64,000 nucleotides of DNA from Sphyrna mokarran (lineage: Eukaryota). Positions within the stretch are counted from its first letter, which is position 1. Each line of letters opens with the position of its first letter. The position numbers were made by a program, and so were the translations under genes. Under the pieces are notes generated by a model. It worked only from the letters and a program-made list of their open reading frames with translations, was not told where the DNA came from and did not search any database. Shown in pieces: positions 56,568 to 64,000 of the stretch. The stretch is taken from the NCBI GenBank assembly GCA_024679065.1, contig JAGIQG010000004.1:31558001-31622000 (forward strand), written 5' to 3'.

Positions 56568-57652
56568 ATTTCAGTAAGGCGTTTGACAAGGTTCCTCATG
56601 GTAGACTGATAGAGAAGGTGAAGGCGCATGGGATACAGGGTCGGGTATGTAGATGGGTCGAGAACTGGTTCGGGAGGAGGAGACAGAGGGTAGTAGTGGA
56701 AGGCTCTTTTTCCGACTGGAAGCCTGTCACTAGTGGAGTGCCACAAGGCTCAGTACTAGGTCCTCTTCTAATTGTGGTCTACATAAACGACTTGGAAGTT
56801 GGGGGTAGGTGGTGAGATCAGCAAATTTGCTGATGACACCAAGATGCTTGGATTGGCGGGTACAGAGGAGCAGTGTCAAGCAATACAACAGGACATAGAT
56901 AGGTTGGTAGACTGGGCAGATAGATGGCAAATGGAATTTAATCCGGATAAATGCGAGGTGATGCATTTTGGCCTGAAAAATGTAGAAGAGAGTTATAGGG
57001 TAAAAGGTAAAACTATACGGAGCATAGAGACGCAGAGAGACTTGGGGGTGCAGGTTCACAAGTCTCTGAAGGTGTCCTCACAGGTGGAGAAGGTGATAAA
57101 GAAGGCGTATAGTATGTTAGCTTTCGTAGAAAAGGGTATAGAATACAAGAGTAGGAGTTTGATGTTGCAATTGTATAGAACGTTGGTTAGGCCTCACTTG
57201 GAATACTGCGTCCAGTTCTGGTCGCCGTACTATCGGAAGGATGTGGAGTCCTTGGAGAGAGTGCAGAGGAGGTTTACAAGGATGCTGCCTGGTATGGAAG
57301 GACTGTCTTATGAGGAACGATTAAATAGACTGGGGTTGTTTTCCCTTGAAAGACGTCGGCTTAGAGGGGATCTCATAGAGGTGTATAAGATTATAAGGGG
57401 TATAGATAGCGTAAATGGAGGTAAACTTTTTCCACCTTTAGAAATGGATAGGACGAGGGGTCATGGCCATAGGGTGAGGGGGTCTATGTATAGGACGAAT
57501 ATTAGAGGGCAGTTTTTCACACAAAGGGTAGTGGGGGTGTGGAATGCACTGCCGAGTAAGGTGTGGGAGCAGGCACGCTGGGGCTGTTTAAGGGTCTCTT
57601 GGACAGCCACATGAGCAGTATGCAGATAGAGGGATATAGTAGGACTGTTTAA
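56568..57652 (+). pseudogene. CR1 ORF2 reverse transcriptase C-terminal half
   Basis: [47 protein letters not shown]; only two 1-nt indels (56801-56805, ~57563); restored stop TAA at 57650-57652. Confidence 0.9.
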
Positions 57653-57669
57653 CTACTGCTTTTTTTCCA

Positions 57670-57802
57670 CAGGTAATTCGGTCCATACTTGACCAACATT
57701 GAGCATGCATTCGGCAGGTGGTGCGAGTACGGCTCTTGGATGTTGATTCATGGGTTGCCTGGTACTTCATGTCGTAAATGAGTGCTTTATGTGGACCATC
57801 TG
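57670..57802 (+). ncRNA. Predicted long RNA hairpin in the CR1 3' UTR
   Basis: Nested complementary blocks, with compensatory changes relative to 63430-63563 (-); structure inferred by eye, expression unknown. Confidence 0.65.
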
Positions 57803-57805
57803 AAG

Positions 57806-57985
57806 GGCACCATGACAGCTCAGTGACTATCGCTGTAGCTGTGCAGACACTTGGAATTGGGTCGGTGTCTGTGGGAGTTGGCGCGTTCTCCCCGTGGTTG
57901 CATGGGTTTTCTCCGGGTGCTCCGGTTTCCTCCCACATCCCAAAAAATTCGCTCTTAGGCTGATTGGGAAACAAATTGTCCCTAT
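57806..57985 (+). other. Decayed SINE head plus V-domain embedded in the LINE 3' UTR
   Basis: GTCTGTGGGAGTTGGCGCGTTCTCCCCGTG..GGGTTTTCTCCGGGTGCTCCGGTTTCCTCCCACA matches the V-domain of the SINEs in this window. Confidence 0.85.
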
Positions 57986-58136
57986 GGTGAGAATTTTCCA
58001 TATTAGGAATAATATATATTATTATATAGGAATATTAAAATAGGATAATGGATTTGCTACTATATAGTATGACGGCGGCGCGGGCTCGTTGGGCCGAAGG
58101 GCCTGTTTCCCGTGCTGTGTTGTTAAAAAAAAAAAA

Positions 58137-58590
58137 TTACAGCAAGGAACAGGCCCTTCAGCCCTCCAAACCTGCACTGACTATGCTGTCCAACTGAACT
58201 AAAACTCCCTACCCTTTGGGGATCATATCCCTCCATTCCTATCTTATTAACATATTTGTCAAGAAGCACCTTAAAAGTCATGATCATATCTGCTTCCACT
58301 ACTCTCCTGGCAGCAAGTTCCAGGCATCCACCATCCTCTGTGTAAAAAACATCCCTCTATATCTCCTTTAAACTTGCCCATCGTACTTTAAACCTATGTC
58401 CCCTAGTAATTGACTCTTCCATTCTGGTAAAAAGTTTCTGACTATCCATTCTGTCCACGCCCTTTATAATCTTATAAACTTCTGTCTTGTTTCCCCACAA
58501 CCCCCATCATTCCAATGAGAGCAATCTAAGTTTCTCCAATCTCTAGCCAAGTTTCTCCAACCTCAAACCAAGGTTCTCCAACCGCTCTAA
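58137..58590 (-). mobile_element. Older CR1 3' fragment; its tail (56542-56567) is split off by the young CR1
   Basis: TTACAGCAAGGAACAGGCCCTTC continues AACAAAGAACAAAAAA, as in the reverse complement of 10935-10970. Confidence 0.8.
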
Positions 58591-60620: not shown

Positions 60621-63249
60621 CTCCCTCCATTGGAACCGTGCATGGTTGAAGTTTTCGAGAAGAAATATTATGTTAAATGCGAGCTCCAAGATCCTTCCAC
60701 TAAACGATTGCTTGTGTTGATTTACAAACTAGTGCATAAAATGTTCATTTGGAATGTGTGTTGAATAAATTGATGTTGAAGATTGTATAAGAAAGCTAAA
60801 GGTCGGGGGTGGGGGGGTTGGTGGAATGACATGTATGCGGTGCCTGTTTCTTTTACTCTGCAGTAGAAGTGGGTCACCTGACTTGAGGAGCTAATAGGAA
60901 CTGATAATGGGTGGTCATTCCACAAGGTGAAATCCTTTCTCAGTTTGAGTCATCTAGCATCCGCGTGGTGGGTATCATAAAGACTGCAGCATGACTCCAG
61001 GTTAGCCTAGAGTTGCAATGCCTGTACCTCGTTTTCCTGACCAATAATATCTTGCGTTCCCACTGAAGCCTAAAATCTCTTGACAATGGGAGAGTGCCCA
61101 CGACATAACACCTTCCATCTCTCTGTACCCTGTGACAACCATTACTAATGTGATTACTTGTAGACATTGATGAAGATTTTGATTCCTTGTTTTGAAACTG
61201 GAAACAGCAATAGCCCTTTACTGAGAGTGCATTGCAATTGCCCACCCACTAATTGGCCAGCTCCCACTCAGAGCTATTACTAATGCCTGGTGCTCATCCA
61301 CTTAATGTAGATCAGGTTGCATATTGGAATAAAGGTGGATTCCGTGCACTAATTGTTGGAGAGGCACCAACCAAATTTGTCTGACATGCCTATTAGAATG
61401 GCCCTAGAAAAATATTGAGCTGTTGAGTCAAACCACACATTGGGCTGAATGTTTACTGAGTCTGGATGACTCAGTAGCCTTTTAAAAATGGTGGGTGGTT
61501 CCTGATTGTAGACTGATTTCTGAGTTACTGTTGAAGGGAGTGGGCTTGTTCCTGTCAAAAACTCACATCTAGCAGTCAAGACCAAGCCAGCTCTGTTATG
61601 GAGATAGAAATATCCTACTCCTCTGCAAATTCAGTGGAGGTGGGCCAGGTATTTAAAGAATTGTATTTCATGCCACCTCAGAAGGCCAAAGAGTGTGAAA
61701 AGGGGGCTTTTACAAAGATGTGTTTTAAATGCCCTTCTCATGACCTCTGTGCCAAAGTAAGTCTCTCTACCTACCTCCCATAACCTTTCATGCCTTCTCT
61801 GCTGGTATATGCACCTCAGTCATCCCCCATAGCATCTCACGTCCCATATTGCAAACTATGGTATTTCCATGCCTCTATATCACTATATAGAAGAAACTAT
61901 TATATTCTATAATGTGAAGAAAAAGCTCTAAAGAAAAATTCATACATTCATTACTTTTACTATGTTAAAAAAGTAATTTCACTACAAGGCAATAATAGTG
62001 TCAATAATCCAAACTCCTTAAAGTATTAATAACCAAAACCACAAGCTCCCGAAACAATTTAACCTTGTGTAAATAAACATTGTGAAATTGACAGCATACA
62101 TTAGAGAGCAGAAGCTGATGATCAAGCATCATTTAACCTGGGATGCAGATGTTTCAACAAAAATAATGGATGCCATGAGATTTTGCTAAGAGTCCAGACA
62201 TCTATTTGTTGAGACACCTATATAACAAATGGACATGAAAGTATGATATCATGGCATAGGGGCATGAATTCCACAGGGAATAGGTGGACTGTCATAGCTT
62301 AGTATGGGACATGAGAGATTATGGGAGTCAGTGGGAGGCATACTCCGGAATTGAGGCATGGATGGGGCCTGGGGAGCATGTTAGAGGAGACGGGCTACAG
62401 GGGTGTGAGTAGAAGGGTCTTTGTGCGTTAATTGAAATTGGAACAAAGTTGCACAGCACTGGGGTAGATCTTTGAAACAGCCTGCCTTGACTGCTGGCAG
62501 CCCCTGTGGTTACCTCTGCACATCTTCATGGGTTGGCTGTCCCAGCTCCATCCTTTATCCCCTGAAATGAAGAGCCCATTCTTACAAGTGCTTTCTACCG
62601 AGGTGGGCAGGCTGAGTAAAAATGTTCCTGCGTCCCCTACCCACCTTTAAAATATCAATAATGGAAACAGCAAGTCCTTGAAACACTTAACCTTGTATGA
62701 ACAAACATTGTGAAATTGACAGCAAAGATTAGAGGGTCTGAGCTGTCAATAATATAACATTTTCTTTGGGGTACAACTGGTTTGACCATAGTAATGGATA
62801 ACTGAACTCTCAGCCAGGTATACATAATGAAGCTTGGCTGAGACTCTAGATTGCCTTTGGATATAAAACACAATCCATTAACAAGTATTAACAGTTTTGA
62901 GATTGAAATACTTTGATTGTATTTTGTTTTTCTAATAATTCTGCCATAATTTGGTGAAAAGTTAATTTGTTCAATTTATATGGTGAACCATTGCAATAAG
63001 CAGTGGTGTGATCAGGTCATAGAAACCTTTCAACATGATTTCTAGAGACACACCTTTAGATTTCTTCTGAGCTTACTACCACACACTAAATATAGGGAGT
63101 TCACAACAAAGAACAAAGAACAAAACAGCATGGGAAACAGGCCCTTCGGCCCAACAAGCCCGCACCGCCACCTCAATGTTCCCACTTCTACATGCGATCC
63201 CTGTCCATGTTTATAGATCTATGGATTAAAAACCAAATTTGAGACAATT

Positions 63250-63425
63250 TAGGGAGAATTTGTTTTGCCAATTAGCCTAAGAGCACATCTTTGGGATGTG
63301 GGAGGAACCGGAGCTCCCGGAGAAAACCCACGCAAGCACGGGGAGAATGCGCAAACTCCCACAGACACAGGCCCAAATCCATGTATCTGCACAGCACAGC
63401 GATAGTCACTGAGCTGTCGTGTTGC
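63250..63425 (-). other. Decayed SINE head plus V-domain embedded in the LINE 3' UTR
   Basis: Minus strand GTCTGTGGGAGTTTGCGCATTCTCCCCGTGCTTGCGTGGGTTTTCTCCGGGAGCTCCGG. Confidence 0.85.
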
Positions 63426-63429
63426 ACAT

Positions 63430-63563
63430 CAGATGGTCCAGGTCAAGCATACACTAACGATGTGAAGCAGTAGGATACTCTCGAAGAAGATCCAAGAGCA
63501 GTCCTCTCACGACCCATCGCGTGTATGCCCCTCATTAGACAACAAGGTGGACCAAAGCACCTG
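63430..63563 (-). ncRNA. Predicted long RNA hairpin in the CR1 3' UTR
   Basis: TGGTCCA/TGGACCA, GGGCATACAC/GTGTATGCTT, GCGATG/CATCGT, AGGA/TCCT and GCTCTTGGA/TTCGAGAGT nested pairings. Confidence 0.7.
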
Positions 63564-64000
63564 TAGGATAAAAACAAGTACATCATCTATTTACACACTT
63601 CCCAGGGACTCCCAAGGCTCATGATCCCTATTTTAAATCAGTTTTCTATAACCCTCCATTCCCATTCTGTTCATGTGCCCATCTAAGTATTTCTTAAATA
63701 ACTCCAGAGTACCTGCCTCCACCACTTTACTTGGCAGCGCATTCCATACCCCACCACCCTCTGTGTGAAAAAACTCCCTCTAGCATCCAAATTATACCTT
63801 ACCCCCCCTCACCCTAAGCCCGTGACCCCTCGTGCTATTTGAGTCCATCCCAGGAAAAAGCTTAGCCCTGTTTACTCTATCTATCCCCTTCAAAATCTTG
63901 TACACCTCTATCAGATCTCCTCTAAGTCTACGTCTTTCTAAGGAAAACAGTCCCAATTTGCCTAATCTCTCCTCGTAACTCAGATCTTCCATACCAGGCA

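Follow-up and report, generated by a model that had tools for sequence, protein, structure and literature searches.

Rare genomic copies of spliced LINE RNA are known from human L1, where these SpIREs use a donor in the 5′ UTR; L1 splice sites are retained even though splicing harms the element, and sequestering of the sites by RNA structure has been suggested (PMC5860796). How LINE RNAs avoid splicing and exit the nucleus is nevertheless poorly understood. Intron-retaining retroviral RNA is described as requiring a structured export element (PMC7551171). The constitutive example, the CTE, is a long stem-loop of 150–175 nt with two internal loops, and the motif AAGACA has been named for the gamma-CTE of MLV. 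Within LINE RNA itself, the ILS of the insect I-factor is a bulged stem-loop that is read by its shape; it lies in coding sequence, and the accessible part of PMC13186709 links it to no splice site. For CR1-type LINEs, structured cis-elements other than the short stem-loop of the 3′ tail are little described. CR1-group elements make up 22–34% of the genome in this animal group (PMC13343379), the HER1 LINE and HE1 V-SINE form a known pair in sharks and rays (PMC3747384, whose table supplies the HE1 name used below), and the V domain is also carried by a DNA transposon (PMC6887750).

The locus considered here, in a window of 64,000 nucleotides of genomic DNA, holds two copies of a CR1-type LINE whose 3′ UTR contains a predicted hairpin. 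The hairpin begins at a splice acceptor that was used by two genomic copies from which both ORFs have been removed, and it is this arrangement that is new. The spliced L1 retrocopies and the HER1/HE1 pair were known already, and a full-text literature search (outside subscription papers, supplements, Repbase and Dfam) found no report of the hairpin, of a CR1 element with its ORFs spliced out to a 3′ UTR acceptor, or of structured CR1 cis-elements beyond the short 3′ tail stem-loop.

The likeness to the L1 SpIREs lies in the rarity of the spliced retrocopies, the 5′ UTR donor and the retention of the splice sites. Unlike the SpIREs, which in the available text of PMC5860796 are spliced within the 5′ UTR or into ORF1, the present case concerns a CR1-type element with an acceptor in the 3′ UTR, the loss of both ORFs, and an acceptor that adjoins a covarying structure. 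With the CTE of MPMV and SRV1, as presented in the accessible part of PMC7551171, the hairpin shares a long stem-loop of similar size with internal loops, in an RNA that leaves the nucleus unspliced. It differs in lacking AAGACA and a pair of like internal loops, in not conserving its sequence and in having a LINE as its host; NXF1 would by analogy be only a candidate for binding it. The predicted structure spans 135 nt and includes a side hairpin, a bulge, a 4x4 internal loop and a 2x1 loop. The hairpin resembles the ILS and the Egl-BicD stem-loops as a bulged stem-loop in LINE RNA, the difference being that it adjoins an acceptor. The ILS is also the shorter of the two. Like HER1 and HE1, a CR1-type LINE here shares its tail with a tRNA-derived V-SINE, but in this case the SINE lies inside the LINE 3′ UTR (compared with PMC3747384). 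In comparison with the 3′-end stem-loops of stringent LINEs, the 135-nt hairpin is an extra structure, and the ordinary tail follows it only after about 280 nt. Searching Rfam, as the preliminary description of this DNA had proposed, gave no covariance-model match to the hairpin at E values up to 10 (both window copies and six other loci). On the features tested, we conclude that the hairpin belongs neither with the CTEs nor with the miRNAs, nor to any other family in Rfam.

The composite LINE 3′ end

The genome (2.77 Gb) carries repeats that appear to be of the shark and ray type. The 3′ end of the LINE runs from the ORF2 stop codon through the non-coding hairpin and a tRNA-headed V-SINE to the LINE tail (Table 1), and this composite end is present in at least 43,267 copies, a lower bound given by exact genome-wide matches to a specific 23-letter pattern (control pattern, 0). 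Full-length copies measure about 4.7 kb; their ORF1 is esterase-like, and their ORF2 opens with an endonuclease. In one of them, L306, the GDSL-like ORF1 has an E value of 7e-6, below the Pfam cut-off, and the Exo_endo_phos match one of 2e-11. We base the clade name on ORF1, on the shared SINE tail and on a C-terminal motif. The combination of an esterase-like ORF1 and an endonuclease ORF2, as read from the sequence, fits canonical CR1, for which the available text of PMC13343379 gives an esterase ORF1. Copy 2 is a near full-length element that extends about 3.9 kb past the end of the window.

Table 1. Positions of the LINE parts within the window
Copy	Feature	Positions	Strand	Remarks
1	3′ part of ORF2 of a 5′-truncated CR1-type LINE	56568..57652	+	Subfamily stop TAA at 57650-57652; frameshift shortly upstream of it
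1	3′ splice acceptor	57648..57672	+	TTTAAC, resembling a branch point and overlapping the stop codon, then a pyrimidine tract and CAG; exon from 57673
1	Hairpin (subfamily A), predicted	57670..57802	+	Helices at the base, a side hairpin that is eroded, and a long stem of irregular pairing
1	Captured tRNA-headed V-SINE	57805..57990	+	Presumably HE1 type; B box unrecognisable
1	LINE 3′ tail common to free SINEs	58074..58136	+	A-rich end
2	3′ end of ORF2 (subfamily B1)	63633..64000	-	Stop TAA at 63635-63633
2	3′ UTR spacer, pyrimidine tract, CAG acceptor	63561..63632	-	CAG at 63563-63561
2	Hairpin with side hairpin, predicted	63430..63563	-	
2	Captured V-SINE, spacer, LINE tail	63102..63427	-	TTCTTTG repeats

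Further features of the full-length copies were observed. ORF1 and ORF2 lie in one frame in L306, with two stop codons between them, and in L319, where the frame is continuous for 1092 codons. In the 5′ UTR (L317:2290-2730, L320-L349) a GC-rich unit that includes a TATA-like box is repeated, and many full-length copies start about 30 nt behind the upstream one of these units.

Folding of the hairpin across subfamilies

The preliminary description had proposed a hairpin of which all the arms listed are indeed present in both copies, and for each copy the LINE sense strand folds better than shuffled sequences do. Copy 1 reaches −46.7 kcal/mol with a z of −2.75, equalled by none of 200 shuffles, compared with a z of −0.43 on the opposite strand (68/200); for copy 2 the corresponding values are −53.4 kcal/mol (z −4.42, 1/200) and a z of −1.66 (12/200). 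The element was rightly called non-coding, all three sense frames closing within 40 codons in both copies, and the estimate of two-thirds identity was accurate, the two subfamily consensuses differing at 42 of 132 sites (68% identity).

Several structural details need amendment. The 3′-side bulge is constant, as described, but what was taken for a large 5′ bulge proves to be a side hairpin of small size (columns 17–34), found in the kin of six of the seven older consensuses and eroded or deleted in the A lineage. The paired change of CGGCA/TGTCG to CGATG/CATCG holds with a correction, in that CATCG contains a private G>A of copy 2 and its subfamily reads CGTCG. The GAGTAC/GTACTT helix is one of two registers, the one common to the subfamilies pairing columns 54–57 with 95–98, and the bottom helix, CAGGT/ATCTG, is predicted in only six of ten consensuses. 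Instead of two LINE subfamilies there are at least ten subfamily variants. Among 229 distinct copies, 151 fall into nine clusters and 78 are unclustered; a tenth consensus, in which the side hairpin is deleted, was built from four copies. Copies are 92–99% identical to the consensus of their own subfamily. Every one of the ten consensuses outdoes its shuffles when folded as the sense strand, with z from −2.5 to −5.6 and no more than 1 of 150 shuffles equalling it; on the antisense strand 6–108 of 150 did so, and none of the consensuses is significant.

To examine the changes between subfamilies, those observed on each of eight branches of a parsimony tree, which is our own guess at the relationships, were placed at random in 150 trials per branch, with the branch E1>E2 (three changes) omitted. 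The trials that folded as well as the real descendant numbered 3, 13, 2, 5, 1, 1, 21 and 3 of 150, giving a combined p of 4e-6; with only the two branches outside the descent of the window copies, p was 0.003. Of the controls, the antisense strand gave p 0.03 and ORF2 windows p 0.07, with 2 of 20 tests under 0.05 after 5 of 25 cells with under three changes had been skipped. Over 31–35 changes, random placement costs 12–20 kcal/mol, compared with a loss of 0–5 kcal/mol in the real descendants (0–1 of 150 trials as good). Fixed changes tend to avoid paired sites, where 43 of 86 of them lie, compared with 368 of the 509 private changes (p 7e-5; p 0.02 without CpG transitions).

Taking one natural copy per subfamily, we found 8 of 51 pairs changed on both sides, compared with 3.5 ± 1.1 in shuffles (0 of 500 as many), in a structure that was derived from the same sequences. 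Five of the eight are fixed subfamily changes (39-115, 43-111, 49-103, 64-89 and 69-84), for most of which a G-U or mismatch intermediate is present in another subfamily; the other three are alignment artefacts or private changes. A pair-by-pair test was negative, in that 21 of 43 fixed changes at paired sites stayed canonical as against 226 of 368 private ones (75/179 without CpG transitions), a result that register shifts may explain. The hairpin diverges as fast as fourfold sites (42/132 versus 20/64 for the subfamilies of the two window copies).

Given that folding is confined to the sense strand, and that fixed changes spare the fold more than random placement does, we consider it very probable that the predicted fold has been kept by selection in the source elements. 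The earlier description of a selected RNA element is thus supported by the fold tests, with the one pair-by-pair test going the other way. The dated series of subfamilies records the stepwise evolution of one RNA structure, with G-U intermediates as its fossils, and its variants are ready-made material for assays.

The splice acceptor and spliced genomic copies

The first letters of the hairpin are the CAG of a pyrimidine tract followed by a CAG|G acceptor, a feature that the preliminary description had passed over, and both tract and CAG|G are kept in all nine of the subfamily consensuses examined. The distance from the stop codon to the CAG, 163 nt at first, has shrunk in two lineages, leaving 81 nt in one of them and about 20 nt in the second, in each case sparing the tract and the AG, and the pyrimidine share of the tract is 0.71–0.88, compared with 0.38 in ORF2. 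Subfamilies A and C have a branch-point-like sequence 20 nt before the AG to which the stop codon itself contributes.

GT donors are present in the 5′ UTR of full-length copies. Having predicted the donor–acceptor junctions beforehand, we searched the genome for them by pattern. The first pattern had a single match, L350, and its control none. L350 is an insert of 504 nt, in which 47 nt of first exon, ending at the CTG|GTGAGT donor, are joined to CAG|G and followed in order by the first base behind the acceptor, the hairpin, the SINE and the tail. A looser pattern gave 15 matches, namely L350, a second copy, L354, three copies of the B type with an altered acceptor, and ten unrelated sites. 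L354 belongs to the B lineage and has the same donor–acceptor junction with 13–14 nt of exon, a call that depends on one B-type 5′ UTR, to which the match is short. Both copies end in the LINE tail with TTCTTTG-type repeats, and their junction shares G|G on both sides. The stretch between donor and acceptor in full-length copies measures 4136 and 4176 nt and includes both ORFs.

Since two copies from two lineages join a 5′ UTR GT donor exactly to the AG, the acceptor appears to work, if rarely; and since a chance deletion is unlikely to hit both GT and AG twice, an origin by splicing is favoured. The two copies are direct genomic evidence that the site has been used, and there is a strong case that the L350 and L354 junctions were produced by the spliceosome. 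From the junction it follows that the spliced product would be a non-coding RNA of 500 nt that opens with the hairpin. These two copies are the only spliced ones found, as against more than 43,000 3′ ends.

We then considered how the hairpin might relate to use of the AG. The idea that the hairpin specifically masks the AG is unsupported, because a helix pairing the AG is predicted in only six of ten consensuses and because the AG is predicted to be paired in most consensuses without the hairpin too. The subfamilies nearest to L350 and L354 are C and B0, both without the AG-covering helix, which fits masking, although these are two cases only and B0 is the commonest subfamily.

Other observations concern the same sites. 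A second donor, GTAAGT/GTGAGT, lies about 63 nt upstream of the ORF1 ATG and has been retained in the different variants; no copy spliced from it was found, either by joining of the second 5′ UTR segment to the hairpin (0 of 30 copies of that segment) or genome-wide by pattern. In three B copies (L351, L352 and L360) the last five letters of the acceptor are replaced by those that end the first exon, which could have arisen by double mutations in separate copies or by switching from one of the two RNAs, spliced and unspliced, to the other. We also considered, and rejected, a discrete short element with its start at the base of the hairpin: 14 of 85 5′ ends at risk fall 150–210 nt upstream of the anchor, around the tract and hairpin base, compared with 6.1 expected (sample C1, 92 of 93 copies entered), an excess that is insignificant after scan correction (p 0.17). 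Copies with a 5′ end at the AG do not share a spliced donor either, about 18 of 49 loci having unrelated flanks with none in common; these 49 comprise the first 30 matches and 19 picked by eye among 100 of 1380.

Possible roles of the hairpin

Our main reading, to which we give a probability of about 0.42, is that a predicted and likely selected 3′ UTR structure, starting at a used acceptor, helps unspliced LINE RNA to escape splicing or to exit the nucleus. Full-length LINE RNA would formally be an intron-retaining transcript, and, as the structure is kept at the start of the last exon, its simplest role would be to favour the unspliced, retrotransposition-competent RNA. It might obstruct the acceptor, or recruit export factors in the manner of retroviral CTEs. 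The preliminary description had suggested a CTE-like export role, which is possible by analogy with intron-retaining retroviral RNA, but AAGACA is absent from all ten consensuses. The nearness of acceptor and hairpin may itself have been inherited from one captured host exon. We regard as more doubtful the fuller proposal that the whole coding region behaves as a retained intron, with a shape-conserved element at the acceptor that balances unspliced RNA against the 500-nt spliced RNA or licenses export of the former. If it were true, this LINE lineage would be organised like a simple retrovirus inside out, and its working acceptor, in more than 43,000 copies, would expose host genes to potential exon trapping. 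Host splicing may be affected by a working acceptor that is present tens of thousands of times.

The main rival to a nuclear role is a signal read by its shape in the cytoplasm. The selected structure would then act after export and independently of the splice site, as a site for a reader of dsRNA shape (Staufen-like or Egalitarian-like transport into germ cells), in assembly of the ORF1p/ORF2p RNP, or as a stabiliser of the RNA, with the acceptor a tolerated passenger of the captured piece. Though we hold this to be somewhat doubtful, all of the evidence for selection on the fold applies to it equally, spliced copies are very rare, masking of the AG is not specific, and what is kept is shape rather than sequence, with a constant 3′-side bulge and internal loop, much as in the I-factor ILS (PMC13186709). 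What it leaves unexplained is that the tract and AG have survived two UTR deletions and are intact in all subfamilies, though splicing at this site removes both ORFs. Alternatively, the spliced RNA itself would be the selected product, a decoy or regulator that has its tail in common with the LINE and restrains or tunes retrotransposition, with the hairpin as its functional domain. Such a role would account for the position of the hairpin at the opening of the second exon, for the acceptor and 5′ UTR donors kept across subfamilies and for the retrotransposition of spliced RNA at least twice. It is improbable, given that a short, abundant, tailed RNA should leave many complete copies rather than two, and that the minimum-energy structure of the 5′ part of L350 is not the hairpin.

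The remaining explanations are less likely than a nuclear or cytoplasmic role. A neutral relic, in which the element once captured a foldable host exon along with the SINE and the fold of that exon persists through inheritance, chance and ascertainment, agrees with the negative pair-level test, the divergence at the synonymous rate, the choice of two end points because they fold and the controls that are not fully flat; we doubt it strongly, because random placement costs far more energy than the real descendants have lost, the unascertained branches are significant on their own, and the five fixed double changes count against neutral inheritance. The suggestion of a pri-miRNA is poorly supported. 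A Drosha substrate that gives a small RNA or cuts the LINE RNA should have a stem of about 35 bp without large loops, and around 33 pairs are predicted in the long stem above the junction, with an apical UGU in seven of ten consensuses. With cut positions and motifs set by the usual Drosha rules, however, the predicted seeds take three (5p) and four (3p) forms in the ten consensuses, the apical UGU varies between subfamilies, a 4x4 internal loop lies within the would-be duplex, no Rfam miRNA matches, and cleavage would part the ORFs from the tail, all of which makes this reading very unlikely. The preliminary description also allowed for arms that are a decayed MITE inverted repeat. The ends do read CAG...CTG, but none of 49 copies found by the 5′ end of the hairpin alone is a stand-alone element (in 47 the SINE head comes next, one breaks off within the hairpin and one has a diverged head), and folding is strand-specific with invariant G-U pairs; this possibility is already largely refuted and barely worth entertaining.

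Two further candidates were set aside. For an ADAR substrate, as had been suggested, there is no trace in the copies compared (A>G at 11 of 2662 versus T>C at 24 of 4106), many of which were chosen for their likeness within the hairpin, so that heavily edited ones would be missed. An origin from 5S rRNA was rejected, 326–990 of 1000 shuffles scoring as high against the 5S rRNA of the genome.

Lastly, some observations concern rearranged copies. In four of 30 subfamily-A loci (L007, L011, L012 and L014) there is a common 5′ breakpoint in ORF2 about 526 nt upstream of the SINE anchor, with different flanks among the three loci read, and this is either a truncation hotspot or a short derived element. 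L068 and L349 have internal deletions in which ORF2 or the 5′ UTR is joined to downstream parts at non-splice positions. At 58085-58176 of the window, the tail of copy 1 adjoins the inverted tail of another LINE and so forms a hairpin with weak Rfam miRNA matches, which are an artefact of the tail-to-tail insertion.
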